Positions 1,277-48,398 of a stretch of DNA of 64,000 nt are shown here, one piece after another. The stretch covers positions 1-64,000 of the forward strand of contig OX638340.1 in NCBI GenBank assembly GCA_951812955.1. Direction: 5' to 3'. A program made the translations under genes and the position numbers. The notes beneath the pieces were generated by a model. That model was given only the letters and a program-made list of their open reading frames with translations. It ran no database searches and had not been told where the DNA came from. Numbering within the stretch: the stretch's first letter is position 1; every line of letters begins with the position of its first letter. The stretch comes from an uncultured Gemmatimonadota bacterium. GTDB lineage: Bacteria; JAAXHH01.

Positions 1277-1310
1277 GACGGTGATATGCTTGGACAGTCC
1301 TCAGATAGTC

Positions 1311-1418
1311 CGGTCCACCCAGGTGGTCGGGTCCTCCCAGGTGGTCGGGTCCTCCCAGGTGGTCGGGTCCACCCAGGTGGTCGGGTCCACCCAGGTGGTC
1401 GGGTCCTCCCAGGTGATT
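1311..1418. repeat. 18-bp tandem repeat, about 6 units (GGGTCC[A/T]CCCAGGTGGTC), directly upstream of the first operon gene
   Basis: Seen directly: units at 1311-1328, 1329-1346, 1347-1364, 1365-1382, 1383-1400 and 1401-1418. Each unit carries an inverted repeat CCACC-N2-GGTGG and an AGGTGG (Shine-Dalgarno-like) core. The last unit supplies the AGGTGA RBS at 1411-1416 for the ATG at 1423. Confidence 0.9.
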
Positions 1419-5705: not shown

Positions 5706-6386
5706 ATGCGTCGTAAAATACCGCTCATCATCACATTCATCATCGGCGTTGTCCTGGTCACAGGGTATTTCGTGACAAGGGGACCGTTCAACACGCTGTA
5801 TGAGAGTTTCTCCGATTATTTCGCCATCATTACGGTCTTCGCCTTCATCCTCGGCGGCGGCAGTCTGCTAAAGATTCATTTGAAACGCGTTTCCAACCGA
5901 TCCACGGACTGGCCCTACAGTGTGGTAACCCTGGCGGGGTTCCTCGTCACCCTGGTGATCGGACTGTTCAAGGTGGGCAATCCGGATGGGATGGGCGGGG
6001 AGATCCTGGCTGCCGGTTCCTGGCTGCGCTTCCTGTTCGACGGGGTCTACAATCCGCTGTCGGCGACCATGTTCTCCCTGCTGGCCTTCTTTGTCGCCTC
6101 GGCGTCCTACCGGGCCTTCAGAGCGCGTACGAAGGAGGCCACCATCCTCCTTTCCGCCGCCATGGTCATCCTGCTGGGCAGAACCCCCGTGGGCGCCTGG
6201 CTGACGGCCTGGATGCCGGAAATCCTGGGATTTCTCGAACTGCCGAACCTGGCCAACTGGATCATGGCCTGGCCGAACACGGCCGGCCAGCGTGCGATAA
6301 TGATCGGCATCGCCCTGGGGGTCATCGCGACCTCACTGCGCATCATCCTGGGGATCGAGCGCAACTACCTGGGCAGGAGGGAGTGA
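5706..6386 (+). CDS. polytopic integral membrane protein (226 aa)
   Basis: ATG at 5706 lies 5 nt after the upstream stop. There are 5-6 hydrophobic helices ('IPLIITFIIGVVLVTGYFV', 'FAIITVFAFILGGGSLL', 'VVTLAGFLVTLVIGLF', ...). The track's longer N-terminus (from 5361) is an Arg/Gly-rich readthrough inside the previous gene. Confidence 0.5.
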   Translation: MRRKIPLIITFIIGVVLVTGYFVTRGPFNTLYESFSDYFAIITVFAFILGGGSLLKIHLKRVSNRSTDWPYSVVTLAGFLVTLVIGLFKVGNPDGMGGEILAAGSWLRFLFDGVYNPLSATMFSLLAFFVASASYRAFRARTKEATILLSAAMVILLGRTPVGAWLTAWMPEILGFLELPNLANWIMAWPNTAGQRAIMIGIALGVIATSLRIILGIERNYLGRRE

Positions 6387-6388
6387 GC

Positions 6389-7288
6389 ATGCGGATTCCC
6401 GATTCCATCCTGCATATCGACCGGCGGATCATCTTCCTGCTCATCGGGGCGGCCGTCTGCATACCCCTGATCCTGCAGCCCCGCTTCCAGGACAGTCCCA
6501 CGCCTATCGTCCAGTCGATTTTCGACACGGTGGAGCGGCTGCCGTCCGGGTCGCGCGTATTCCTTTCCTTCGATTACGGTCCGGACACGGCGCCCGAACT
6601 GGATCCCATGGCCAAGGCCCTCGTGCGGCACACGATGACCCGGGGCCACGAGGTGTCCTTCTTCACCCTGTTCCCCGAAGGGCTGGGACAGATCAAGAAG
6701 ATCACGGACAACCTGCTGCCTGTGGAGTTCCCGGAGAAAGCCTATGGCAGGGATTTCGTGAACCTGGGTTACAAGGCCGGCCTGGGTGGCGCGATTAATA
6801 CGATGGTCGTCAACTTCCGAACGCTGATCAATGCCGACGCGGAGGGCACGCCGCTCGACGATCTGCCCATGACCGCGGATGTCGACGAGATGGTGGACTA
6901 TGCCATTATCCTCAGCCTGACCGCGGGCGACCCGGGACTGAAGGAGTGGATTCAGTTCGCGGGCGATATCGCGGGGATTCCCGTCATGGGCGGGGGCACC
7001 GCCGTGGTGGCGCCGGAACTGTATCCCTACTATCCTCAGCAACTGGTCGGCCTGATGGGCGGCCTCAAGGGCGCTTCCGAGTACGAGTCCGCCCTTGTGG
7101 ACCGGTATCCGGCCTACCGTAACGCCACCATGGACGCCACCATGCGCATGGGGCCCCAGGTCGTCACCCACGTGCTGATCGTCCTGCTGATCCTGCTGGG
7201 CAATCTGGCTTACTTCTTCGGCCGATCTGGCCGACCGGGCCGGAATGACCGGACGGACCGGGCGGACCAGGCGGACCGCAGGCGTTAA
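6389..7288 (+). CDS. bitopic membrane-anchored protein (about 300 aa) with N- and C-terminal TM helices; the C-terminal tail is encoded by a 9-bp repeat
   Basis: GGAGG at 6377-6381 precedes the ATG at 6389; GTG at 6383 is an alternative that overlaps the upstream TGA. TM 'IIFLLIGAAVCIPLIL' near the N-terminus and 'VVTHVLIVLLILLGNLAYFF' near the C-terminus. Terminal 'GRSGRPGRNDRTDRADQADRRR' is low complexity. Confidence 0.5.
   Translation: MRIPDSILHIDRRIIFLLIGAAVCIPLILQPRFQDSPTPIVQSIFDTVERLPSGSRVFLSFDYGPDTAPELDPMAKALVRHTMTRGHEVSFFTLFPEGLGQIKKITDNLLPVEFPEKAYGRDFVNLGYKAGLGGAINTMVVNFRTLINADAEGTPLDDLPMTADVDEMVDYAIILSLTAGDPGLKEWIQFAGDIAGIPVMGGGTAVVAPELYPYYPQQLVGLMGGLKGASEYESALVDRYPAYRNATMDATMRMGPQVVTHVLIVLLILLGNLAYFFGRSGRPGRNDRTDRADQADRRR
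7243..7280. repeat. 9-bp tandem repeat (RGGCGGACC) x3-4 inside the 3' end of the 6389-7288 CDS
   Basis: Seen directly: ggacggacc / gggcggacc / aggcggacc (7251-7277). It belongs to the same family as the arrays at 18810-18935 and 21110-21175. Confidence 0.7.
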
Positions 7289-10401: not shown

Positions 10402-11484
10402 TCATTTCGGCGCCCTGACCAGCAGAATCAGGGCGAGTAGTCCGAAGAGCGCGTTGGCGCCCCATGCCGCCGCCATGGGCGGGAGCAATCCGGCGTGACC
10501 GAAGGCCTGGGCAAATCGGAGCAGTCCCCAGTAGACGAAACAGATCCCGATACTCAGGGCAAATCCCACCGCGACGCCGCCCCGTCTCAGATGGGAGGCC
10601 AGCGCGCCGCCCAGCAGCACGATGATCAGACCCGCGCCCGGAAATGCGATCTTCAGGTTGAGGTCTACCAGGTAGCCCTGCACGTCTCCTCCTCCCCGCC
10701 GTACGTTCTGAATCAACTGGTCGAGTTCGCCGTAACTCATCTCCTCGGGGCGTTTCTGCCCTCGCAGGAAGTCCTCCGGCGTCTCGGACCATCCGTCGGG
10801 TTCCAACTCGGCGAACGAGGTGTATTCGGACAGTCCGCCTCCAACCAGAAACTGTCGTTTAACCCCGTTGAAAAGCAACCAGCGCCCATCCATCCAGACG
10901 GCGCGTTCCGCCGTGAGGACGCTGGTGACGGAGCCGTCGCGGAACTCGGTGACGTGTATCCCCGTGCCCTCCTCGATGCGTCCGTTGAAAACGCGGATAT
11001 AGATCTGGCGCCCTCCATCTCCCCTGAAATACACATCGTACCGGATGTGTTGCCCTGCGCCGCCTTGCATGTCCACGTGTTCCGATTTGATTTCGGCACG
11101 TTTCATGCTCGTGTGGGGAACAAGCCATTCACCGGCCCAGAACAGGCATGCGCATACCACCACGCTGACGAGGAGCATCGGCCGCAGCAACCGGTACAGG
11201 CTGAGCCCCGATGCTTTCATGGCGGTCAGTTCTCCCAGCCTGGTCAGCTGGCCGAAGGTATAAAGACTGGCGAGCAGCAGACTGACAGGAATCGTGAGCA
11301 CGAAGATGTAGGGCATGTAATAGACGTAGTAGAGCGCGATATAACCCGGTGCCACGTTGCGGTCCAGGAATCGGTCCAATTGCTCGATGAGATCGACCAC
11401 GAAGAAGATGCTGACGAAGGCGACCAGGCTGACGGCGATGGCGGTAATGAACAGGCGGAGTACGTACCGGGTGATCAGGGACAT
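10402..11484 (-). CDS. lptG: LPS export ABC permease, LptG (YjgP/YjgQ family)
   Basis: 360 aa; N-terminal 'ITRYVLRLFITAIAVSLVAFVSIFFVVDLIEQLDRFL', 'AMKASGLSLYRLLRP', a periplasmic beta-jellyroll segment, then 3 C-terminal TM helices. This is the LptF/LptG architecture. It is second in the gene pair, so called lptG. Confidence 0.8.
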   Translation of the reverse strand: MSLITRYVLRLFITAIAVSLVAFVSIFFVVDLIEQLDRFLDRNVAPGYIALYYVYYMPYIFVLTIPVSLLLASLYTFGQLTRLGELTAMKASGLSLYRLLRPMLLVSVVVCACLFWAGEWLVPHTSMKRAEIKSEHVDMQGGAGQHIRYDVYFRGDGGRQIYIRVFNGRIEEGTGIHVTEFRDGSVTSVLTAERAVWMDGRWLLFNGVKRQFLVGGGLSEYTSFAELEPDGWSETPEDFLRGQKRPEEMSYGELDQLIQNVRRGGGDVQGYLVDLNLKIAFPGAGLIIVLLGGALASHLRRGGVAVGFALSIGICFVYWGLLRFAQAFGHAGLLPPMAAAWGANALFGLLALILLVRAPK

Positions 11485-11521
11485 GAAGTAGCGTTCCTCT
11501 GGTGATTTCGACGCAATGACG

Positions 11522-12748
11522 TCAGATGCGATCCCTGCCGCTGACCCAGACCAGGACGGCTCCGGGTACGCCTATGACGATGTTCGCGGCCCACATCGCC
11601 CAGACTGGATCGATCAGATCGCGGTCCGCCAGTTCTTCGCCGCCGAGCAGGCAGGCCCAGTACAGGAGGAAGAAGCAGAGGCTGACGCCGACGCTCACGC
11701 CCATGCCGCTCCGGCGGATACGCACACCCAGCGGCGCGCCGATCAGCACGAAGACGAGACACGCCGCCGAAATGGCGTACTTTTTGTGGATTTCGACGAC
11801 GTAGCTGTTCTTCTGCCGCTGCCTCAACGAGATCGTCCGCTGCGCTTTGGCCCTGGCCGCTTCGATGGAATCTGTCTTCGCCTGCGAGTGAACCGGCCCG
11901 GGTACAAGACTTGCCGCGACCTCGTCGATCTCCAGTTGCCATTCATCGATTTTCGCCTGCATCATTTCAATGTTCAATTCGCGGTCGCCCCGGGTTCCCG
12001 CCTCCGACCGCTGGACGCCGCTGGGCGCGGTGCGAATCGAAAACCGCTGCCGCTCGAAGACCTCTTTGAAATACCGCCCCGTAGACTCGTCCTGTTGAAG
12101 GAGCTCTCCGTCATAGAGCATCAGGTTGATCCTGCTGCCCGTCTCGTTGACGTGAAACTCGCCCGACCTGGCCGTCATGATGCGCGGGTAGCGCAGGTTC
12201 TCCGTTTCGTAGATGGTGATGCTTTCAATCTCATTGTTCCTCGGATTGACCCGGTCGATCAATATGCTGTATCCCGGAATGTCCTTCATGAATATGCCTG
12301 CGGTGAAAAGCAGCGTGGGACGGGCGCGGTGGATATCGTTCATGAGCGAACGGGCCCGGTAATTGGCTTCGGGCAGGATGACGTCCATAAAGTACAGGTG
12401 ACTGCCGCCAAGGAGTATTCCCAGAACCAGCACGGGTGAGACCATCTGGTAGAAACTGACGCCGCCCGCCTTGAACGCCGTGACTTCGTTATCGGCCGAA
12501 AGCCGGCCGAAAGCCATGAGACTGGCGACCAGTACGGACATGGGAATCGATACGGCGACGATCCAGGCAAGGTTGAGAAAGAAAACCTCGAGCACGGTAA
12601 GCAGTTCGAGGTTCTTGCCTATGATGAGGTCGGCAATCTGAAATATGATGTCCATCACGAGGATGAACGTGATGATCACGAATGAAAACAGAAAGGGCCC
12701 GACGTGCGCTTTAAGAACGTATCGGTAGAGGTGAACCGGGAGGGTCAT
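11522..12748 (-). CDS. lptF: LPS export ABC permease, LptF (YjgP/YjgQ family)
   Basis: 408 aa; 'LYRYVLKAHVGPFLFSFVIITFILVMD', 'AFKAGGVSFYQMVSPVL'; same architecture as the adjacent paralogue. Confidence 0.8.
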   Translation of the reverse strand: MTLPVHLYRYVLKAHVGPFLFSFVIITFILVMDIIFQIADLIIGKNLELLTVLEVFFLNLAWIVAVSIPMSVLVASLMAFGRLSADNEVTAFKAGGVSFYQMVSPVLVLGILLGGSHLYFMDVILPEANYRARSLMNDIHRARPTLLFTAGIFMKDIPGYSILIDRVNPRNNEIESITIYETENLRYPRIMTARSGEFHVNETGSRINLMLYDGELLQQDESTGRYFKEVFERQRFSIRTAPSGVQRSEAGTRGDRELNIEMMQAKIDEWQLEIDEVAASLVPGPVHSQAKTDSIEAARAKAQRTISLRQRQKNSYVVEIHKKYAISAACLVFVLIGAPLGVRIRRSGMGVSVGVSLCFFLLYWACLLGGEELADRDLIDPVWAMWAANIVIGVPGAVLVWVSGRDRI

Positions 12749-17898: not shown

Positions 17899-18695
17899 AC
17901 AGTTTGAACCGTGCTCGCGACAGGACGAACAGCCTGGTCTGCGTGGGACTCGATCCGGACGTGGATCGGTTTCCGGAGCACTTGAAATCGGGAAATGATG
18001 CGGTATTCGAGTTCAACCGGTCGATCATCGAGCACACATCGGACCTCGTATCGGCCTATAAGCTGAACATCGCATTTTTCGAAGTCATGGGTGCCCGGGG
18101 CTACGAGGTGCTCGAGCGCACGCTCACGGTGATCCCGGAAGAGGTCGTGGTGATCTGCGATTGCAAGCGGGGCGACATGGGGAATAGCGCGCGCATGTAC
18201 GCGAAGGCGCTGTTCGAGCACTTCGGATTCGACGCGGTGACGGTCAATCCCTACCAGGGGCGGGATTCCGTTCAGCCCTTCCTGAATTACACCGACCGTG
18301 GGGTCTTCATCCTCTGCCTGACTTCCAACGAGAGCTCGCGCGATTTCCAGCACCTGTCCGTCAACGGACATCCACTGTATATCGAGGTGGCCAGTGCGGC
18401 AGAGTCCTGGAACACCGCCCGAAACGCGGGGCTGGTGGTGGGCGCTACGCAGGCGGAGTCACTGGCGGAGATACGTGCCGTCTCCCCCGACATGCCTCTG
18501 CTGATACCGGGGATCGGCGCCCAGGGCGGCGACCTGGAAACCGTCATCCGCGCCGGCGCCGACACCAGCGGCGGTGGACTGCTCATCAATTCCTCCCGGA
18601 GCATACTTTATTCCTCCGGCGGCCTCGATTTCGCCGAGTGCGCCCGGGCGGCGACGCTAAGGCTCAGAGCAGAGATCAACACCCTGCTTCCCTGA
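17883..18695 (+). CDS. pyrF: orotidine 5'-phosphate decarboxylase (long/type-2 form)
   Basis: 'LVCVGLDPD', 'KLNIAFFE', 'ICDCKRGDMGNSA'; ATG at 17883 overlaps the pyrD 3' end. Confidence 0.85.
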   Translation: MSPFVDSLNRARDRTNSLVCVGLDPDVDRFPEHLKSGNDAVFEFNRSIIEHTSDLVSAYKLNIAFFEVMGARGYEVLERTLTVIPEEVVVICDCKRGDMGNSARMYAKALFEHFGFDAVTVNPYQGRDSVQPFLNYTDRGVFILCLTSNESSRDFQHLSVNGHPLYIEVASAAESWNTARNAGLVVGATQAESLAEIRAVSPDMPLLIPGIGAQGGDLETVIRAGADTSGGGLLINSSRSILYSSGGLDFAECARAATLRLRAEINTLLP

Positions 18696-18809
18696 ATACC
18701 ATGCTCGGTCCGGCGTCAGGCCACGCCACGGTTTTTCGGACCCTGCGTAACCGGATGTATCGACACGGGCGTAAATCCCGTGTTTCAAGGAACGTCGACC
18801 GATGCGGAA

Positions 18810-18935
18810 CAGGATCAATCGGACCAATCGGGCCAATCGGACCAGTCCGGCCAGGCGGACCGAGTGGGCAAATCTGGCCAAGCTGGCCAAGCTGACTAGG
18901 CGGACCAGGCGGACCGAGCTGACCAGGCGGACCAG
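18810..18935. repeat. array of 9-bp/hexamer-type tandem repeats (…GGACCAATCGG… and …AGGCGGACC…) upstream of the methyltransferase gene
   Basis: Seen directly: caatcggaccaatcgggccaatcggaccagtccggccaggcggacc ... ctggccaagctggccaagctgactaggcggaccaggcggaccgagctgaccaggcggaccag. It gives Arg/Thr/Asn repeats in the + frame and a PGP/IGP repeat in the - frame. Confidence 0.7.
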
Positions 18936-18939
18936 AGAC

Positions 18940-19479
18940 ATGGAGACCAACTTCGAGGTACGCAGTTTCGATGCGGAGATCACAAAGGAAGCGTACGACA
19001 GGCTGCCCAAGCTGCCGCTGTATTTCGTACTGGACAACCTGCGCAGCGCATTCAACGTGGGTTCCATATTCCGGACCTGCGACATCCTGCGGGTTAAAAG
19101 CCTCTTTCTGTGCGGTTACACGGCCTGTCCGCCCCACGCGAAGCTGGAGAAGACGGCCCTGGGCACCATAGATTACGTCCCCTGGCGTAATTTCGAGTCG
19201 GCCGTCGACGCGGTCGACTACCTGCGAGACAGAAGCGTCGCGGTGTGGGCCGCCGAAACGGCTTCGGGTTCGGTTCCGTATGACGAGGCGGTATTTCCGG
19301 ACGAATTGGCGATCGTCCTGGGTAACGAGGCGCTGGGCGTGAGCCGCGACGTGCTGGAACGGTGTGACGGCCTGGTCGAAATCCCCACGCGGGGCTACAA
19401 GAATTCGCTCAACGTGGCGTCCGCCTGCGCGGTCCTGGGATTCAAGGCGCTGGAGCAAATGGAAGGGAAATCGAACTGA
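18940..19479 (+). CDS. SpoU/TrmH-family RNA 2'-O-methyltransferase
   Basis: 'VLDNLRSAFNVGSIFRTCD', 'IVLGNEALGVS', 'LVEIPTRGYKNSLNVASACAVL' are the SPOUT motifs. Start chosen at 'METNFEV' because the 46-aa upstream extension is repeat-encoded low complexity. Confidence 0.75.
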   Translation: METNFEVRSFDAEITKEAYDRLPKLPLYFVLDNLRSAFNVGSIFRTCDILRVKSLFLCGYTACPPHAKLEKTALGTIDYVPWRNFESAVDAVDYLRDRSVAVWAAETASGSVPYDEAVFPDELAIVLGNEALGVSRDVLERCDGLVEIPTRGYKNSLNVASACAVLGFKALEQMEGKSN

Positions 19480-19505
19480 CCGGGTCGAATGATCCTGCGG
19501 GAAGG

Positions 19506-20285
19506 CTACGGGTCGCTCGACCAGGTCTTCCTGCCCACGAAGAACGGTCCCAGCGAATCGATGTACAGGGCGGTCTGCTGGGTCTTACGCATGTCCTGGA
19601 CGACCCGTGAGAGCGGGTAAAGTTCCTTGCCGAGCAGTCCGATGACGAAGTCGTTGTCCGCCTCGTCCAGCCCGTAGCAAGCCAGGCGGATGTCGTGGGC
19701 GAAGTCGGCCCGGCCGTAGGCTCGGCCGATGTGGGCGTGCTCCATCAGGATCTGGCGCTGCTCCTTGTGTTCAAGGCGGGCGAAGGCGCCGTTCCGTCTC
19801 AGGGGATACCAGATAGCCCAGGGCCAGTCGGGATTGAGCACGGTGTTGCGCGGCCGGTGTATGAGCGATTCCTTCAGGTCCGGTTCGTATCCCATGGAGT
19901 AGGTCCTGCCGAACATCGTCATGTTTCCGCGTAGTTCCATCGCATCGAACGGACTGACAGTCAACAGGTTCCGGACGTCCGTTACGAAGGCATCCGGATC
20001 TTCGGCCAGGAACAGCACGCCGATACCCGTGGGATCGTTGACATCGAGATACACCGCGGAATCCAGACCGGATTTCCGCAGCGCGACGATGCATTCGCCG
20101 GTTATGTCCGGGGCCCGCCGGACGGATTCCCGGCTGGACACGGTGAACACATTGAGCTGCATGTACAGCCGTGTTTCGGCCGTCTGGGCCTGGCCGTTTA
20201 CTGGCGCTCCGCGTTCGAGTATATCTGGGGTCCTGCCGGTGTCTTCGTTCACGTCGCTTCCCTGCCTTCTCTTTGACGATTCCAT
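19506..20285 (-). CDS. hemQ: chlorite-dismutase-family coproheme decarboxylase (HemQ/ChdC-like)
   Basis: Cld-family ferredoxin-like fold motifs 'LYMQLNVFTV', 'IGVLFLAEDPDAF', 'WPWAIWYPLRR', 'LMEHAHIGRAYG'. Start at 'MESSKRR' (20285), because the longer ORF would overlap the divergent hemH start. Confidence 0.7.
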   Translation of the reverse strand: MESSKRRQGSDVNEDTGRTPDILERGAPVNGQAQTAETRLYMQLNVFTVSSRESVRRAPDITGECIVALRKSGLDSAVYLDVNDPTGIGVLFLAEDPDAFVTDVRNLLTVSPFDAMELRGNMTMFGRTYSMGYEPDLKESLIHRPRNTVLNPDWPWAIWYPLRRNGAFARLEHKEQRQILMEHAHIGRAYGRADFAHDIRLACYGLDEADNDFVIGLLGKELYPLSRVVQDMRKTQQTALYIDSLGPFFVGRKTWSSDP

Positions 20286-20380
20286 CCCAAAACCCGTGGC
20301 TGGACGCGGGTAAATTACGGAGGAGACGGCAGCATGGCAAGCAAATCCGGGGTTATGAGATCTGACAGGGAGGAAGCCCG

Positions 20381-21430
20381 TTGAACTACGACGCATTGCT
20401 CCTGGTATCATTCGGGGGCCCGGAAGGCGCCGCCGACGTCCTCCCCTTTCTCGAGCGCGTGCTCAAAGGCCGGCGCGTTCCCAGGGAACGAATGATGGAG
20501 GTCGCGGAACACTACCACCATTTCGGTGGGGTCAGCCCGATAAACAGCCAGAACCGGGCACTGATCTCCGCCCTTGAAAGCGCGTTGGCGAACCGCGACC
20601 TTCCCCTCCCGATCTACTGGGGAAACCGGAACTGGCATCCCTTGCTGGCGGATACGGTCCGGCGGATGGCCGCGGACGGGATCCAACGGGCGCTGGCCCT
20701 CGTTACGTCCGCCTACAGCTCCTATTCGAACTGCAGGCAGTACCTCGAGAACATCGAGGATGCCCGGCGCGAGGTGGGCGGCGGCGCCCCGAAAATCGAC
20801 AAGATCAGGCCCTTTTTCCATCATCCGGGTTATATCGAAACGATGGAGGCACGCGTTCGTTCCGCCCTGGACCGCTTGCCGGAAGCGCGCCGCGCCTCGG
20901 CGCACCTGGTGTATACCGCCCACAGCATACCCCTGGCCATGGCTCGGGGATGCGCGTACGAAGCGCAACTCCGGGAAGCCTCCCGGCTCATCAGCGCGCG
21001 CGCGGGCGCTTCCTCCTGGACGCTGGCATTTCAAAGCCGCAGCGGTCCGCCCGCTCAGCCCTGGCTGGAACCCGATGTCTGTGATTACATCCGGTCGTTC
21101 CACGAGACTGGCGCGGGCCGGGCGGACCGAGCGGACCGAGCGGGCCGGGCGGACCGGGCGGACCGGGATATCGTGTTGATCCCCGTAGGATTCATCTCGG
21201 ACCACATGGAAGTGGCCTACGACCTGGACATTGAAGCGCGGGCGTGTTGCGATGAGCTCGGGGTACGCATGGTCCGGGCGGAAACGGCGGGGACTCATCC
21301 CCGCTTCGTGGAAATGATCGTGGAACTCGTCGAAGAACGCCTGTCCCTGACGACGGCCAGGGCGGCCGTGGGTGTCCTGGAACCGTGGCCCGATCGATGC
21401 CCGCCGGACTGCTGCCCTTCCGGCAGGTAG
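20381..21430 (+). CDS. hemH: ferrochelatase (likely coproporphyrin ferrochelatase CpfC) carrying an in-frame repeat insertion
   Basis: 'LLVSFGGPEG', 'SPINSQNRALISALESAL', 'YWGNRNWHP', 'IPVGFISDHMEVAYDLDIEA' are ferrochelatase signatures. 'GAGRADRADRAGRADRADR' immediately before the 'IVLIPVGF' strand is encoded by the 9-bp repeat. Confidence 0.85.
   Translation: MNYDALLLVSFGGPEGAADVLPFLERVLKGRRVPRERMMEVAEHYHHFGGVSPINSQNRALISALESALANRDLPLPIYWGNRNWHPLLADTVRRMAADGIQRALALVTSAYSSYSNCRQYLENIEDARREVGGGAPKIDKIRPFFHHPGYIETMEARVRSALDRLPEARRASAHLVYTAHSIPLAMARGCAYEAQLREASRLISARAGASSWTLAFQSRSGPPAQPWLEPDVCDYIRSFHETGAGRADRADRAGRADRADRDIVLIPVGFISDHMEVAYDLDIEARACCDELGVRMVRAETAGTHPRFVEMIVELVEERLSLTTARAAVGVLEPWPDRCPPDCCPSGR
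21110..21175. repeat. 9-bp tandem repeat (CGGACCGRG/CGGGCCGGG) x about 6 inside hemH
   Basis: Seen directly: ggccgggcggaccgagcggaccgagcgggccgggcggaccgggcggaccggg. Confidence 0.8.
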
Positions 21431-21455
21431 GTCATGTGGGAAGAACCGGCCATCC

Positions 21456-22490
21456 TCAGACCGGGACCTCCCACCGGTCCATGGGTTCGGTGGAACGTAC
21501 CCGGCGCATGCCCGCGTCGGCGAACCGGCCGAAGGCCTTCTCCGCCTCCCCAGTAAAATCGATCACACCGGGAACGACGACCGGTGAGGTGCAGTCCTCC
21601 AGCAGGCAGACTTTCGCGGTCATGGACGGCTTGCGCGCCTCGAACTCCGTCCGGAGATCTTCCACCGTCCACGCCACGCAATGACTCTTGGCCTGCCCGG
21701 CCACGATGACGGCGTCGAAGGTCATCAAGTGATCGACCAGCGGCGAATTCCTGTCACCCACCGGATGGCCGCCGGCGTCTTCCATTACGTCGGGGCGCAA
21801 CACGGAGTAGTTCTCTGTGAGGGCATGATTCCCTTTGAGTTCGAAGCGGGCCTGACGGACTCGCGCGATGCTGTGAAAGAAAACCGCCTCCTCGACCGCG
21901 GACACCAGGGCGTGGCCGATGCCCCCGAGCATGGCGTGGTACGGCCAGATCATGAGCGGATACTTGCCATCGCGCGCGAGGCGCCGGACGTAATGCAGCG
22001 CGTAGGCGGAAAGATCGATCCGGCCGCCGAACCAGGCCTCCACCGTGGGATTCACACGCCAGGTTCCCTGTTCTACGTCGTCCGGGGTGATGACCGTTTC
22101 GCCGCCTATGGGATGTCCGCCCCCTTCGTCGACCCAGAACATCGGGTGGAAGATCTGCTGGGCCGTGTGGGTGTCCATCGTGGGGATAATCTCCGTAATG
22201 GAATGGAGGTTGCGGTAGATGAAGGTGCATAGGCGGTCGTTGTCCTCCACGGCGCCACGTCCGCTCCGTCCACCGACGAAAAGCTCGAATCCGGGAAGAC
22301 AGAAAGTGTTCTGGCAGTCCACCAGGAGCAGGGCGGTTCGAAAGGCATCCTCGACCGAGGGCCGGATCCCGCGTTCTTCCGCCCAATCTCGGGCATCCGC
22401 GGCCCGTTCTCCGTATGGGACGCGCCAGACCGTCTCGACGGACCCCGACGTGTAGTGGGGCGGAACGTCTCCGAGTGGTTTAAAGTTCAT
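21456..22490 (-). CDS. isochorismatase-family cysteine hydrolase, nicotinamidase(PncA)-like
   Basis: '[15 protein letters not shown]' is the cysteine-hydrolase motif. A catalytic Cys candidate lies in '[12 protein letters not shown]'. It sits immediately downstream of nadE, with an 11-nt overlap. Confidence 0.65.
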
Positions 22491-24549
22491 CGGGGATGCG
22501 ATCTAAATCCGACAGCCAGACCGCCGGAGAAGCATCGGACGGCATCCGCCAGTCGCCACGGGGGGATATACAGGTCATGCCGACCTTGGGCCCTTCCGGC
22601 AGGCAGTTCCGTTTGAACTGGTTCTGGAAGAACCGGACGATAAAGACGCGCAGCCAGGTCTTGATCTCCCGGAGTTCGTACTTTCCCTCGAATGCATGCA
22701 TTGCCATCCGGGCGATACGCGAGGGCGAGAAGCCGAATCGCATGAAGTAGTAGATGAAGAAGTCGTGCAGTTCGTAGGGACCGATTTTCTCTTCGGTTTT
22801 CTGGGCGATCTCCCGCTCGCGCGGTGGCAGCAATTCCGGTGAAATAGGCGTGTCGAGAATGTCCAGCAGCACGTCCCTCACTGCCGACTCCTGTTCGAAG
22901 ACCTCGTCGGCGGTCCAGCGGATCAGGTAGGAAATGAGGGTCTTGGGAATCCCTGCATTGACGCCGTAATGGCTGGCATGGTCGCCGAACATGGTGCACC
23001 ATCCCAGCGCCAGTTCCGAAAGGTCGCCGGTACCGAGTACGATACCCTTGACCTGGGCGGCCGTGGCGAGTTCCTCCAGTTTCCGGGTCCATGCCTGGGT
23101 GTTTTCGTAGACGAGGTCTTTCTTGTCTTCCGAATGCCCGATATCCCCGAAGAACTGCCGCACCGCGGGTTTGATGTCGATCTCCCGGAAAGTGGCGCCG
23201 ACCGCCCGGATCAGCGTACATGCGTTCGAGTAGGTTCGCTCCGTAGTGCCCAGTCCCGGCATGGTCAGGGCCACGATGCGGGACCGCGGCAGGCCGAGCA
23301 GGTCCATGGTGTGTACTGCGACATTCAGGGCGTGGGTCGAATCCTGGCCCCCTGACACCGCCACGACGACCCTCCGGGCATCCTCGGGCAGCGATCTCAG
23401 CTTGGTCGCGAGTCCGGTGGACTGGATCATGAACACTTCGCGGCACCGCTGGCTGCGATCCGCGAGATTTTGCGGTACGAAGGGATGAGAGGGTATATCG
23501 CGCTCGAAGGTCCGATGCGCTACTCCGGGCGCCTTCCCGGCATTCTTCGAACCCTCTTCTCCAGCGTGGCCGGCATCTTTCGAACCCTCTTCTCCATCGT
23601 GGCCGAACCGGAATCCCGGAAGGTAAGCGGACCGCCAGGATGACTTGTAGTCCATGGCGTTCTGACGGAAAGAGCCCTGGACGCCCCGCTCCAGCGTCAG
23701 CGCCTCCACGTCGACGTCCGCGACGATGCAGGCTCCATCAAGCTGGAAGCGTTCGGTTTTCGCCAGCATGTAGCCTCGTTCGGCGATGAACCCGTGGCCG
23801 TCCCAAACCACGTCCATGGTCGACTCCCCGAATCCCGCCGCGGCGTACATGTGGACGGCCTCGTTGCGGCCCGATGAAGCCAGGACGAGGTCCTCCCGGT
23901 ACTGCGCCTTGCCGATGACGATGTTGGAGGCCGACAGGTTCGCCAGAATGCTCGCGCCCGCCAGCGCCGCCCTGCTGCTCGGGGGCACCGGAACCCAGTC
24001 GTCTTCGCAGATCGTCGGATATATCACGACCCTGGGATCATCCGTACGCAACAGCACGTCGGGTCCGAATGGCGCTTCCCGGCCACAAAGAGATACAGAG
24101 TCGGTCTGCGCTTCCGCGGCCCGGGCAAAATACCGCGTCTCATAAAACTCGCGATATTGCGGGAGATAGGTCTTGGGCGCAACGGACAGGATGTCTCCGC
24201 GGCTGCAGGTTACCGCGACGTTGAAGACCGCGTGATCGATCCGCAGGGGCATGCCGAAACTGAAAGCCAGGCCGGTTTCCCTGGTCTGGTCCAGCAGTTC
24301 CTCAAGCGCCTTCAGCGCACCGTCCAGCAGCGCCTGGGAATGGAAGAGGTCGGCGCAGGTATAACCGGTCAGACTCAATTCCGGGAAAAGGACATAGGAA
24401 GCTCCCTTCCCGCCTGCCGCTTCGATCTGCTCCAGGTGATGCGCCACGTTCGCCGCGGGGTCGCCCACGCGAATACGGGGTACGGCGATGGCCAGGCGCA
24501 CGAAGCCGTGGCTGCGCACATCGAGAAACTGTTCGGGGCTGAGTTCCAT
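22480..24549 (-). CDS. nadE: glutamine-dependent NAD+ synthetase (N-terminal nitrilase/CN-hydrolase domain plus C-terminal synthetase)
   Basis: 689 aa. N-terminal '[19 protein letters not shown]...[15 protein letters not shown]' is the CN hydrolase domain. C-terminal '[15 protein letters not shown]' is the PP-loop (SGGxDS) synthetase domain. An internal 33-bp tandem duplication lies in the interdomain region. Confidence 0.9.
23539..23604. repeat. 33-bp direct tandem duplication inside nadE (30/33 identical)
   Basis: Seen directly: ggcattcttcgaaccctcttctccagcgtggcc / ggcatctttcgaaccctcttctccatcgtggcc. It encodes the duplicated peptide '[23 protein letters not shown]'. Confidence 0.85.
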
Positions 24550-45769: not shown

Positions 45770-45899
45770 GATACCCGCGGTCAACCCGCGCTTCGATCCG
45801 TTCCGTTTCCGCGGGGGCTGGCGCGTCGCCCGATGACGGCCTCCACAGGCCAGGGCGGGTTCGACCATGATACTCGGAAAACCGCCATACGCGGCCCGG

Positions 45900-48398
45900 A
45901 TGCGTAGCAAATCCCCTTTCCTGGCCGGCGTGTTGTTCTCCGCCTGCGTCTTCATCTCCGGAGTCGCGGGACAGGGGTGCGATTCCGGTTCCGAGCCTCA
46001 CCTGAACAGACTGGCCGGAGAAGCAAGCCCCTATCTGCGCGGCCATGCCCGGAACCCGGTGGATTGGTATCCGTGGGGCGCGGAAGCGATCGGACGCGCC
46101 CGCCGGGAGGGGAGGCCCATCTTCCTTTCCATCGGTTACTCGACCTGCCACTGGTGCCACGTCATGGAACGCAGGGTGTTTTCCGACCCCGGTATCGCCG
46201 CTTTCATGAATGCCCATTTCGTGAACATTAAGGTGGACCGCGAAGAACGCCCCGATGTAGATGAGATCTACATGGCGGCCACCCAGCTCATCACGGGCGG
46301 CGGCGGCTGGCCCAATTCGGTGTTCCTTACACCGGAACTCGAACCGTTTTTCGCCGGTACGTATTTCCCGCCGGAGGACCTGCCCGGCCGGCCCGGTTTC
46401 CCCCGGGTGCTGAACCTGTTGAAGGAGGCGTGGGACGCCCGCAGGGATGACCTGGTCGGACAGGCAGGCCGAGTGGCGGAAGCGATCCGGTCGCTTCAGC
46501 GCGACCAGGTCGCAGGAGACGGGACGGCGGTCCTGGACGAAGGAATACTCTCCGGTGCCCAATCGCACCTGAAAACGCGATACGATGCCGAAAACGGAGG
46601 ATTCGGCCCTGCGCCCAAGTTCCCGGCCCCTTTGCGAATTGAACTGGCGCTGAAAGAATACGAACGCACCGGCGACGGATCCCTGCTGTCCATGGCCACC
46701 CATACGCTGGACGTCATGATGAACGGCGGACTGTACGACCACGTGGGCGGCGGATTTCACCGGTATGCTACAGATTCCGGGTGGCGCATTCCCCACTTCG
46801 AAAAGATGTTGTATAACCAGGCAGACCTGGCCCGTGTCTACCTGCTGGCCTTCGAAATTACCGGCGAAACAGCCTACCGGGCCGTAGCCGAAGACGTGCT
46901 CGCCTTCGTCCAACGGGAGATGCGGGACCCCGGGAGCGCTTTCTATACCGCTGTGGATTCCGAGACCGACACCGTTGAAGGGCGTTACTACCTCTGGTCC
47001 GAGGAGGATATCAGGAAAACGCTTGGCGCAGACGCGGACGTCTTTCTGACACACTACGGCCTGGCGCCCATTTCCGGGACGGTCGCCGGAATCCCTGCCG
47101 TGGGTGACGTGGAAGGTGACGCGGTGGGCGTCGTGGATGGAGGCACGATAGGAGACGCGGAAGGAGATGCAGATGGTGACGCGGATGGTATCACCGGCGC
47201 GGGTGTCCTGTACGTAAGAACGGATAGGGATTCGGTCGGACCGCCCGACGGCCTGGATGAGCTGCGTGAAACGCTCCGATCGGCGCGTTCGAACCGAAAG
47301 CCTCCCGTGGTGGACACCAAGGTAATCACGGCCTGGAACGGCCAGATGATCGACGCCTTCGCCTACGCGGGGCTCGTGACGGACAACGGGCGTTACGTCG
47401 ACACAGCGGCGCGGGCCGCGGACTTCATCCTCGACCGCCTCTGGGACGACGGGTCCGGCCTCCACCGGATCTACCTGGAAGGAGCGGTTCATCGGGAAGC
47501 ATTTCAGGAGGACTACGCCTGCCTGATCCAGGGCCTGCAGAGACTGCATGAGGTCAGTGCGGAGCCGCGTTGGCTCGCCGCGGCCGAAATGCTCACGAAC
47601 CGGATGAACGAACGCTTCTGGGATACCGAGCGGGGCGGGTACTTCTTCGCGGAAGGCGGAGAATACCAGATCGTTCGCACGCGAAACGCCTTTGATGGCG
47701 CACGGGCATCCGGGAACGGCATGGCCGCCCGGTCACTGGTCTCAATGGCGCGCCTCACCGGCGACTATCGGTACCGGGCGCGAGCCGCACGCCTGTTCAA
47801 CGCATATGCTTCGTCGATGCATGAGATCCCCGGCCGGTTTACCTCCATGATCCTTGCGCTGCGGGACTATCTACACGACGAACGGATTCCGGTACAAATG
47901 GCTGGCGCGGATGGAGGGTCCCCCGCCGGGGAGCACGGGCGGAACGGAAGGACAGGCCCGGGAGAGGGGACGGACCCTTCGGGTGCGGGATTCGGCGGCG
48001 AACCAAAGGTCGTGGCCCGGCTGAGCGTCGTGGCGGGCCCGCGCGAGGAATCCTTCAACGCGACCGTATCGATCTCCATCGAGGACGGTTGGCACATTAA
48101 TGGCAATACGACTTCTGTCCCGGGACTGGTTCCCACGGCCCTTACTTTCAACGCGGATATCCCCATCGAGGCCGCCGCGATTTCTTACCCACCGGCTGAG
48201 ACGATGCGGTTCGCATTTGCCGACGCCCCGCTGGAGGTCTATCGTGGCGACGTCCGGCTGGGTGCCGATATCGATGTGGATCCCGGGTCCCTGGCGGAAG
48301 GCATGCTACTCTACGCGACCCTCTACTACCAGCCCTGCGACGACGCCGTGTGCCTCGAGCCGGCGGAGATCACGATGTCGGCCCCGATGCATCCGTGA
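45900..48398 (+). CDS. DUF255/YyaL-type thioredoxin-domain protein with (alpha/alpha)6 'N-acylglucosamine-epimerase-like' domain, a Gly/Asp repeat insertion and a long C-terminal extension; lipoprotein
   Basis: Lipobox '[11 protein letters not shown]'. '[46 protein letters not shown]' is the thioredoxin-like CxxC part. '[26 protein letters not shown]' and the downstream region are YyaL-like. The ORF-track start at 45867 is 11 aa longer. Confidence 0.7.
47104..47195. repeat. imperfect GGTGACGCGG-type repeats encoding a (V/E)GDA(D/E)G Gly-Asp tract inside the DUF255 protein
   Basis: Seen directly: gtgacgtggaaggtgacgcggtgggcgtcgtggatggaggcacgataggagacgcggaaggagatgcagatggtgacgcggatggtatc. It gives '[35 protein letters not shown]'. 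Confidence 0.7.

Follow-up and report, generated by a model that had tools for sequence, protein, structure and literature searches.

A ferrochelatase gene with a repeat-lengthened loop and a ChdC-like neighbour in an uncultured Gemmatimonadota bacterium

Can a ferrochelatase function with a tandem repeat written into its coding sequence beside the catalytic core, and which branch of haem synthesis would such an enzyme serve? These questions are raised by the hemH gene in a 64-kb stretch of DNA from an uncultured Gemmatimonadota bacterium (positions 1 to 64,000 of contig OX638340.1; hereafter the window). An earlier note on this DNA had suggested that a charged insert in hemH was either a tolerated surface loop or a sign that the gene is impaired. 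It had also suggested that hemH and a divergently transcribed gene of the chlorite dismutase family imply the coproporphyrin-dependent (CPD) branch of haem synthesis in an organism with an outer membrane. We think it quite likely that hemH encodes a working, constrained ferrochelatase from the clade of the actinobacterial coproporphyrin ferrochelatases (CpfC), in which one loop has been lengthened by a nearly neutral 9-bp repeat that arose by slippage. The relevant features are:

20381-21430, forward strand: hemH, ferrochelatase gene (probable cpfC), 349 amino acids, TTG start (Pfam, NCBIfam, PDB profile search, AlphaFold2 model)
21113-21166, forward strand: six tandem copies of a 9-bp unit (GCG GRC CGR) in frame, read as AGR-ADR-ADR-AGR-ADR-ADR (Tandem Repeats Finder, translation)
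21167-21229, forward strand: conserved strand of the core with the catalytic motif, DIVLIPVGFISDHMEVAYDLD, residues 263-283 (invariant columns, structural model, alignment to B. subtilis HemH)

The hemH gene is intact and under purifying selection

The TTG start codon of hemH is 6 bases 3' of a Shine-Dalgarno sequence (GGGAGGA), and the open reading frame (ORF) stays open to the stop codon. By curated thresholds, the product is a full-length ferrochelatase. It matches Pfam PF00762 (Ferrochelatase) with 279.8 bits against a cut-off of 27 (residues 4-320, positions 2-316 of the 317 in the profile), and it passes both the NCBIfam equivalog NF000689 (431 bits; cut-off 408) and TIGR00109 (146.4 bits; cut-off 124.6). 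Its nearest homologues are 74-97% identical and come from metagenome-assembled genomes; the named ones are labelled Gemmatimonadota.

We aligned the protein with 61 homologues (alignment A1) and with 87 homologues (alignment A2, which was also the input of the structural model). A1 has 120 invariant columns, including H181, H275, E277, and the PVGF motif, and the protein from the window keeps every invariant residue. The catalytic residues H181 (in TAHSIP) and E277 (in SDHME) align with H183 and E264 of B. subtilis HemH. E277 is invariant in both alignments, while H181 is invariant in A1 and at least 90% conserved in A2. Within the motif that follows the repeat, the counterparts of H275 and E277 in B. 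subtilis HemH are H262 and E264, and P268, G270, F271, D274, H275, E277, L282, and D283 are invariant in both sets of homologues. The ratio of nonsynonymous to synonymous substitution rates (dN/dS) was about 0.22 against two relatives that are 96-97% identical, and 0.22-0.23 over three pairwise comparisons: the gene is under purifying selection.

The AlphaFold2 (AF2) model has an overall predicted local distance difference test score (pLDDT) of 90.1 and a predicted template modelling score (pTM) of 0.89. It has the ferrochelatase fold, with two Rossmann-like domains and parallel four-stranded sheets, and its best Foldseek matches are the CpfCs of B. subtilis and L. monocytogenes (template modelling score, or TM, of 0.86-0.89, E = 1e-26; all TM values against solved structures are normalised to the target). 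Around the insert, residues 233-250 and 253-259 are modelled as helices, followed by a strand (264-267), the PVGFISDH segment, and another helix (276-293). The pLDDT dips at residues 241-260 (68 and 53), at 111-120 around C118 (69), and in the last nine residues (64).

Could the enzyme nevertheless be impaired, or the gene be turning into a pseudogene, with the repeat disturbing a conserved strand by the active site? The insert does directly abut the conserved DIVLIPVGF strand, and the model is uncertain within the insert (pLDDT 53-68). But the frame is open from the TTG to the stop, the catalytic and other invariant residues are all present, dN/dS is about 0.22, the remainder of the model is confident, and strand 264-267 is formed. 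Furthermore, dozens of orthologues have 0 to 36 extra residues at this site, and all of these relatives retain the frame and the core. We saw no second ferrochelatase that could compensate among the ORFs that we scanned across the 64-kb window. An impaired enzyme is therefore very improbable. Because of the intact frame, the kept catalytic residues, the low dN/dS, and the variable orthologues, we favor the other half of the earlier note's alternative, the tolerant surface loop. Since the conserved core tolerates 0 to 36 repeat-encoded residues at the far end of the catalytic strand, hemH should be annotated as a functional gene and not as a pseudogene.

A 9-bp repeat lengthens the loop before the catalytic strand

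The array at 21113-21166 translates in frame to AGRADRADRAGRADRADR and is followed directly by DIVLIPVGFISDHMEVAYDLD, so it sits just 5' of the conserved strand and catalytic motif DIVLIPVGFISDHME. Tandem Repeats Finder and the in-frame translation agree on this placement, which had already been noticed. For 21113-21167, Tandem Repeats Finder gives a 9-bp unit with 6.1 copies, 89% matches, and a score of 82, or alternatively a 27-bp unit with 2.0 copies and a score of 99. The insert had been put at 19 amino acids, which needs correcting: 18 residues are encoded by the repeat, and the net insert is 15 amino acids relative to either the shortest orthologues (334 amino acids, with the loop HESGADRD) or B. 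subtilis HemH, and 16 relative to the solved CpfC 28wn.

The copy number of the array varies between close relatives. Two relatives with 96-97% identity are fully syntenic with the window over about 11-21 kb of aligned sequence. Compared to the window, the array is one 9-bp unit shorter in locus L001 (97.2% nucleotide identity) and 27 bp, or three units, shorter in loci L002 and L003 (96%). Coding indels relative to L001 (21 kb, 97.2%) and L002 (96%) are at tandem arrays and are multiples of 3. In A1, too, length varies mainly at this position, which is flanked by ...DYIRSFHE(T/S)G and D(I/L)V(V/L)IPVGF. Across 55 orthologues of the Gemmatimonadota type, the loop has 8-44 residues (0 to 36 extra residues), and its length is of the form 8+3n in 39 of them; 7 of the 55 have the 8-residue loop. 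Even among proteins that are 91-97% identical to the one from the window, we found loops of 11, 14, 20, 23, 26, 31, and 37 amino acids.

The repeat units are more alike within genomes than between them: they are GCT GAC CGG in L001 and L044, GTG GAC CGG in L002, and GCG GAC CGR in the window. This is the pattern expected if units are repeatedly gained and lost by slippage. Locus L006 has the ground state, a single GGA GAC CGG unit.

In A1, we also noticed a second hypervariable segment in orthologues P0031-P0052. It lies in the linker after EERLSP (around 21344-21361 in the window) and has up to about 30 extra residues that are rich in Ala, Pro, Arg, and Val and partly repeated (SAVEARPAA). 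This linker is minimal in the window.

Short GC-rich tandem repeats are prone to errors in assembly, and the exact 349-amino-acid protein is absent from the protein collection, so we considered whether the repeat is an artefact of assembly or sequencing. However, independent assemblies from many samples have arrays at the same site, with differing copy numbers and always in frame, and such arrays are also seen on megabase long-read contigs. One orthologue (P0003) has the same length as the protein from the window and a closely similar array. We give an artefact hardly any credence.

With a unit that is a multiple of 3, a variable copy number, and conserved flanks, the array has the properties of a coding variable-number tandem repeat (VNTR) of the slippage type. 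In-frame coding VNTRs or simple sequence repeats with units that are multiples of three are known in Burkholderia and Mycobacterium genes. The hemH array resembles these in its head-to-tail units of a multiple of 3, in the copy-number differences between close strains, and in its homogenisation within the array. It differs from them in that hemH encodes an enzyme of central metabolism and is not a surface or contingency gene, and in that the GCN-GAC-CRG unit recurs at several loci of the Gemmatimonadota lineage.

We propose the following explanation for the insert. The loop joins a helix of domain II (...DYIRSFHETG) to the beta-strand ahead of the catalytic His/Glu motif, and in its ancestral form it would have contained one codon triplet for G(A/G)-D-R (GCN GAC CGN). 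Replication slippage most likely multiplied this triplet into an in-frame 9-bp array, which has six copies in the window. The array is at the N-terminal end of the strand and the catalytic residues come after the C-terminal end of the same strand, so the added residues would leave the porphyrin cleft undisturbed. The 15 extra residues would project into the solvent, probably as a short helical hairpin of Ala, Asp, and Arg. The (A-D-R)n pattern places Asp and Arg at positions i and i+4, which favors a helix, so the hairpin is a reasonable picture. The length polymorphism would be nearly neutral, with copy number drifting in both directions from strain to strain; that the insert is neutral is suggested by its variability.

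By its topology, the insert maps to an end of the strand that is away from the active site: it precedes the N-terminus of the strand, whereas H275 and E277 follow the C-terminus. It would thus sit on that edge of the domain-II sheet which lies away from the porphyrin cleft.

We also considered an unusual single-stranded DNA hairpin of the array as a promoter of slippage. With a z-score of -0.92, we rejected this idea.

Alternatively, the insert could be a selected functional module of tuned length, such as a helical arm whose charged residues make contact with the ChdC-like partner, with an iron donor, or with the membrane. Expanded arrays do persist in many lineages instead of collapsing to one unit, and the repeat keeps a strict positional pattern of A, then D, then R or Q. 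The i, i+4 spacing would favor a helix, helices are modelled there, and a repeat in the same ADR/ADQ frame terminates another protein (at 7244-7279). On the other hand, the length varies from 11 to 37 amino acids between strains that are 91-97% identical, the solved CpfCs have no equivalent element, and the positional pattern would be expected anyway from a slippage array that is young and built from one codon triplet. Moreover, 7 of the 55 orthologues have no more than the 8-residue loop. We view a selected module as quite unlikely. Still, some points weigh against our preferred explanation of a nearly neutral slippage product. Repeats of the ADR type are found in other proteins as well, so a selected property (charge or helix propensity) is possible. 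Also, orthologues with a broken frame would escape recovery as full-length proteins, so the lack of frameshifted alleles among our matches is weak evidence.

The ferrochelatase is most similar to actinobacterial CpfC

Which porphyrin does this ferrochelatase use? Its best solved relative is a coproporphyrin III ferrochelatase (28wn_A, E = 1.4e-74, residues 3-324). The E-values for other solved ferrochelatases are about 1e-38 for the CpfCs of Firmicutes and about 1e-26 for the human enzyme. F11 aligns with Y13 of B. subtilis HemH and with a Phe in 28wn. The residue at this proximal position is Phe in actinobacterial CpfC, Tyr in Firmicutes CpfC, and Met in the human protoporphyrin ferrochelatase (PpfC) (PMC10427985). 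By its nearest characterised relatives and its proximal Phe, the protein is of the actinobacterial CpfC type, and we predict that its substrate is coproporphyrin.

Two residues at propionate-binding positions are less informative. Y45, S52, and Y121 align with Y46, S53, and Y124 of L. monocytogenes CpfC. The Tyr and Ser that are equivalent to Y45 and S52 are present in PpfCs too (as in human ferrochelatase), so we give them little weight. In the L. monocytogenes enzyme, Y46, S53, and Y124 form hydrogen bonds to propionates 4 and 2 (PMC9794026).

The protein shares several other features with 28wn and with the class that includes the CpfCs of C. diphtheriae and M. tuberculosis. These are a GGPEG motif with the proximal Phe, a His-Tyr before the GGxSP motif, an internal cysteine in YSxCRQY, and a C-terminal extension past the Firmicutes core. 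It is unlike them in that the host is a diderm Gemmatimonadota bacterium, in its hypervariable (A-D-R)n loop (where 28wn has a 16-residue gap), and in the CX3CC arrangement of its C-terminal cysteines. The CpfCs of Firmicutes (B. subtilis HemH, 1AK1; L. monocytogenes, 8AT8 and 6SV3) have the same fold (TM 0.87-0.89, root-mean-square deviation [rmsd] 2.6-2.9 Å) and the same catalytic His and Glu, but they are only 26-28% identical. They have Tyr instead of the proximal Phe, and the Thr of L. monocytogenes (T14) is replaced by Gly in our protein. They also lack its C-terminal Cys-rich tail and its 15-residue insert.

The cysteines are encoded at:

20732-20734, forward strand: codon for Cys118, an internal cysteine and candidate fourth Fe-S ligand (invariant in A1 and A2; Cys also in 28wn)
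21398-21415, forward strand: C-terminal CX3CC group of C340, C344, and C345 (cysteine conservation in 87 homologues)

C340 and C345 are invariant in both alignments, and C344 is invariant in A1 (61 homologues) and at least 90% conserved in A2 (87 homologues); the homologues are from Gemmatimonadota and Planctomycetota. A CX3CC tail is known from the ferrochelatases of Planctomycetes, where it was treated as an incomplete [2Fe-2S] motif that is "missing a fourth cysteine" (PMC8529089). The three-cysteine [2Fe-2S] motif of Weerth et al. is, in PROSITE style, CX(1,11)CX(1,11)C, with three ligands grouped either in an internal insertion or in the C-terminal tail and one distant ligand (PMC8529089). 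CX3CC does not fit this published motif. C118 may be the fourth [2Fe-2S] ligand that completes the CX3CC group. When we compared the C-terminal 49 residues to the PDB to find the Cys motif of 28wn, we obtained spurious matches only.

The divergent neighbour resembles coproheme decarboxylases

The gene on the other side of the intergenic region was described in the earlier note as a member of the chlorite dismutase family, and it is indeed present on the minus strand:

19506-20285, reverse strand: chlorite-dismutase-family gene, probable divergent coproheme decarboxylase (ChdC/HemQ-like) (Pfam, profile search, AF2 model, residues)

In relatives, its start is called at the position that corresponds to 20252 (248 amino acids). 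The protein matches Pfam PF06778 (Chlor_dismutase) with 46.9 bits (cut-off 25), and this general model is the only one that it passed. A profile that we built from 43 members of the family matched T. thermophilus TT1485 (1vdh), L. monocytogenes ChdC, and Geobacillus HemQ in the PDB. With this profile, there was no true chlorite dismutase in the PDB at E up to 0.001; all of the entries were of the ChdC type.

The key residues agree with this. In the alignment, Y160 and H183 occupy the positions of the catalytic Tyr (Y147 in L. monocytogenes, Y145 in S. aureus) and the proximal His (H174 in L. monocytogenes) of ChdC, and both are invariant in the 43 members. The distal Arg of chlorite dismutases is absent: the positions that match Q186 and Q187 of L. 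monocytogenes are His and Asp. The catalytic Tyr, the proximal His, and the lack of a distal Arg are the residues that mark ChdC.

The AF2 model of the protein (pLDDT 89.7) has a two-domain, ferredoxin-like alpha+beta barrel fold and is nearest to ChdC structures. In Foldseek, the top 26 matches are all ChdC entries (TM up to 0.76, target-normalised; rmsd 3.4-5.4 Å), and the chlorite dismutase of Nitrospira first appears at rank 27 (rmsd 6.1-6.4 Å). Overall, the protein is like the ChdC/HemQ proteins of L. monocytogenes, C. diphtheriae, and S. coelicolor, and like T. thermophilus TT1485, in the two-domain ferredoxin-like fold, in Y160 and H183, and in having no distal Arg. It is unlike them in that it belongs to a separate clade, that its structure-based identity to them is 14-20%, and that it scores below the equivalog cut-offs. 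Judging by residues and fold, we predict that it is a divergent ChdC-like enzyme, yet one that lies below the curated threshold for membership.

The clade of this protein is widespread among diderm phyla. It is found in at least 589 species genomes, and the names on these records include Gemmatimonadota, Latescibacterota, Acidobacteriota, Planctomycetota, Poribacteria, and Omnitrophica. The gene adjoins hemH in 10 of 81 loci (80 that we fetched plus the window), which are essentially the Gemmatimonadota group. Outside the Gemmatimonadota, a Pfam scan of the recurrent neighbours identified genes of purine metabolism and other housekeeping genes, among them adenylosuccinate synthetase, AICARFT, SLT, and a sigma factor. 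We found no cgoX, hemE, or hemN among the recurrent neighbours that were scanned at the 80 loci, and no haem-gene neighbours at the distant loci.

Haem is probably made via coproporphyrin

L001-L003 and 9 other loci have retained the divergent pair of the chdC-like gene and hemH, and the two genes share an intergenic region of 95-128 bp. Because a CpfC-like enzyme and a ChdC-like partner are transcribed divergently from this region, we consider the coproporphyrin route to be the likeliest reading, and a probable one, for the organism in the window. We saw no further haem-synthesis genes among the ORFs that we scanned in the 64-kb window.

The alternative is that the enzyme is a protoporphyrin ferrochelatase in the classical pathway and that the neighbour is something else, for instance another haem-binding protein or a protein of the peroxidase type. 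Several observations count against the coproporphyrin route and in favor of this alternative. The propionate-binding Y45 and S52 do not discriminate between CpfC and PpfC. The neighbour misses the HemQ equivalogs by over 200 bits (NF008913, 30.4 bits with a cut-off of 253; NF042928, 29.1 bits with a cut-off of 235). In most other phyla, the ChdC-like gene stands alone and adjoins no haem gene. Finally, the phylum has a member in culture, Gemmatimonas phototrophica, that carries hemN as well as a hemEFG operon, the latter beside a horizontally acquired photosynthesis cluster (PMC11406998). With hemF, hemG, and hemN in this bacterium, the Gemmatimonadota are not uniformly free of the protoporphyrin branch. 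The gene beside hemH in G. phototrophica is not named in the supplements of the transcriptome paper.

Against the protoporphyrin alternative, the nearest solved relative of the ferrochelatase is a CpfC, whose E-value is better by 36 orders of magnitude, and the proximal Phe of the ferrochelatase is as in actinobacterial CpfC. The neighbour has the catalytic Tyr and the proximal His and no distal Arg, and ChdC structures match it first. The gene pair is conserved around a common control region of 95-128 bp. HemQ is reported from Acidobacteria and Planctomycetes (PMC5095920), and ChdC-like homologues with 52-59% identity are found in genomes named to those phyla. On balance, a classical protoporphyrin pathway seems unlikely. 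The coproporphyrin branch that the earlier note had inferred is thus plausible, given the nearest solved CpfC, the Phe, the fold, Tyr, and His of the partner, and the conserved pair. The partner does fall well short of the curated HemQ equivalog cut-offs (30 versus 253 bits).

The note had also presented this route as unexpected in an organism with Lpt outer-membrane machinery. The Lpt genes are there:

10402-12748, reverse strand: lptG/lptF pair (10402-11484 and 11522-12748; Pfam PF03739 LptF_LptG, 280 and 267.7 bits)

Since both LptF and LptG are encoded in the window, the organism likely has an outer membrane with lipopolysaccharide. However, the combination of a diderm envelope with the CPD route is already known and is not new. 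Acidobacteria, Planctomycetes, and Deinococcus-Thermus are all reported to have HemQ (PMC5095920). CPD genes are reported from three of four Acidobacteria genomes, and the CgoX proteins of Nitrospirota and Acidobacteriota form their own branch (PMC10740692). In reviews, ChdC is said to serve monoderm "and some diderm bacteria" (PMC7611857; likewise PMC10427985). Gemmatimonadota would join the diderm phyla that probably make haem via coproporphyrin. These results do not overturn current views; their practical value is in annotation and in the choice of targets for enzymology, for which the large ChdC-like clade (at least 589 species genomes) and the pattern of CX3CC plus one cysteine stand out.

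The 9-bp unit recurs elsewhere in the window and the lineage

The insert in hemH is real but fairly ordinary. What is most unusual about this locus is that the 9-bp unit recurs at other loci, along with a conserved 16-codon upstream ORF (uORF) that is described below. An 18-mer pattern for the unit family (GCN GAC CRG) has 12 matches, versus 1.5 expected. Arrays of NNN-GAY-CRN with at least 3 units occur at 37.6 per Mb in loci of the Gemmatimonadota type and at 5.3 per Mb in other loci with equal GC content, which is a difference of about 7-fold.

Three sites in the window besides hemH involve the GCN GAC CRG family. A membrane protein without annotation (6383-7288) has its C-terminal tail (...NDRTDRADQADRRR) encoded by an array at 7244-7279 (forward strand), which uses the ADR/ADQ frame seen in hemH. 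At 18812-18935 (forward strand), an array at the 5' end of the ORF for a SpoU methyltransferase is read in another frame (TRRTRRTELTRRTR) and differs in length between strains. In hrpA, which is on the minus strand, there is a 9-bp indel (DRIDR) at about 28022.

The unit contains an RsrII-like palindrome (CGGWCCG), and we asked if this might be a genome-wide iterated palindrome. There were 45 sites versus 31 ± 6 expected, and many of them were inside arrays, so we dropped this idea.

A more far-reaching proposal is that the hemH insert is one product of a lineage-specific repeat system, in which the 9-bp unit (GCN-GAC-CRG) builds arrays at a number of unrelated loci, changes its copy number continually, and so writes helical (Ala-Asp-Arg)n segments into the loops and tails of housekeeping proteins, or else that the ChdC-like clade is a mechanistically distinct terminal haem synthase. 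We regard this as speculative and doubtful. Should the arrays be driven by a dedicated mechanism or by selection, and not by plain slippage, they would represent a novel route to diversity in core proteins.

Other tandem repeats in the window have different units. In nadE (22480-24549, reverse strand), a 33-bp repeat with 2.1 copies (23537-23605) encodes a stretch between the CN-hydrolase and NAD-synthase domains. L002 and L003 have one copy fewer (678 versus 689 amino acids), so this is another in-frame copy-number polymorphism. Within the ORF at 45867-48398, which encodes a protein with DUF255/thioredoxin domains, there is a degenerate 12-bp repeat with 7.2 copies (47103-47189, forward strand) whose translation is rich in GD(A/V)(E/D). 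An 18-bp repeat with 6 copies and 95% matches (1308-1415, forward strand; GTCGGGTCCACCCAGGTG) lies between the stop codon of a PhyH-family gene (425-1276) and a small ORF at 1417-1716, in what seems to be a 5' leader or an intergenic stretch.

The upstream ORF and neighbouring genes

The region between the two divergent genes contains a short ORF:

20334-20384, forward strand: 16-codon uORF (MASKSGVMRSDREEAR) (translation; conservation)

This uORF has its own Shine-Dalgarno sequence (GGAGGAG), and its TGA stop codon overlaps the TTG start codon of hemH (gTTGA). Its ATG at -47 and its length are identical in 8 of 11 Gemmatimonadota loci, and nowhere is the intergenic region better conserved than in the block around the uORF, GTAAATTAYGGAGG...ATGGCAAGCAAAT. 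The uORF may have a role in translational coupling or as a leader peptide. In a search of 18600-21700 against Rfam for a riboswitch or leader, there was no match up to E = 1. A scan of 20150-21600 for sigma-70 promoters and terminators gave two weak promoter-like sites only and no terminator.

The neighbourhood contains lptG, lptF, ssb, pyrimidine-synthesis genes, the SpoU methyltransferase, the chlorite-dismutase-family gene, hemH, nadE, queC, and hrpA. Between hemH and nadE there is an ORF of 344 amino acids (21456-22490, reverse strand) that is present in the window and in L001 and absent from L002 and L003. It has no Pfam match. It does have a weak match in two segments to the nicotinamidase PncA (3pl1; E = 0.09), with a VDxQNxFC-like motif and an HCV motif, and it may be a divergent hydrolase of the isochorismatase fold that is linked to NAD metabolism.

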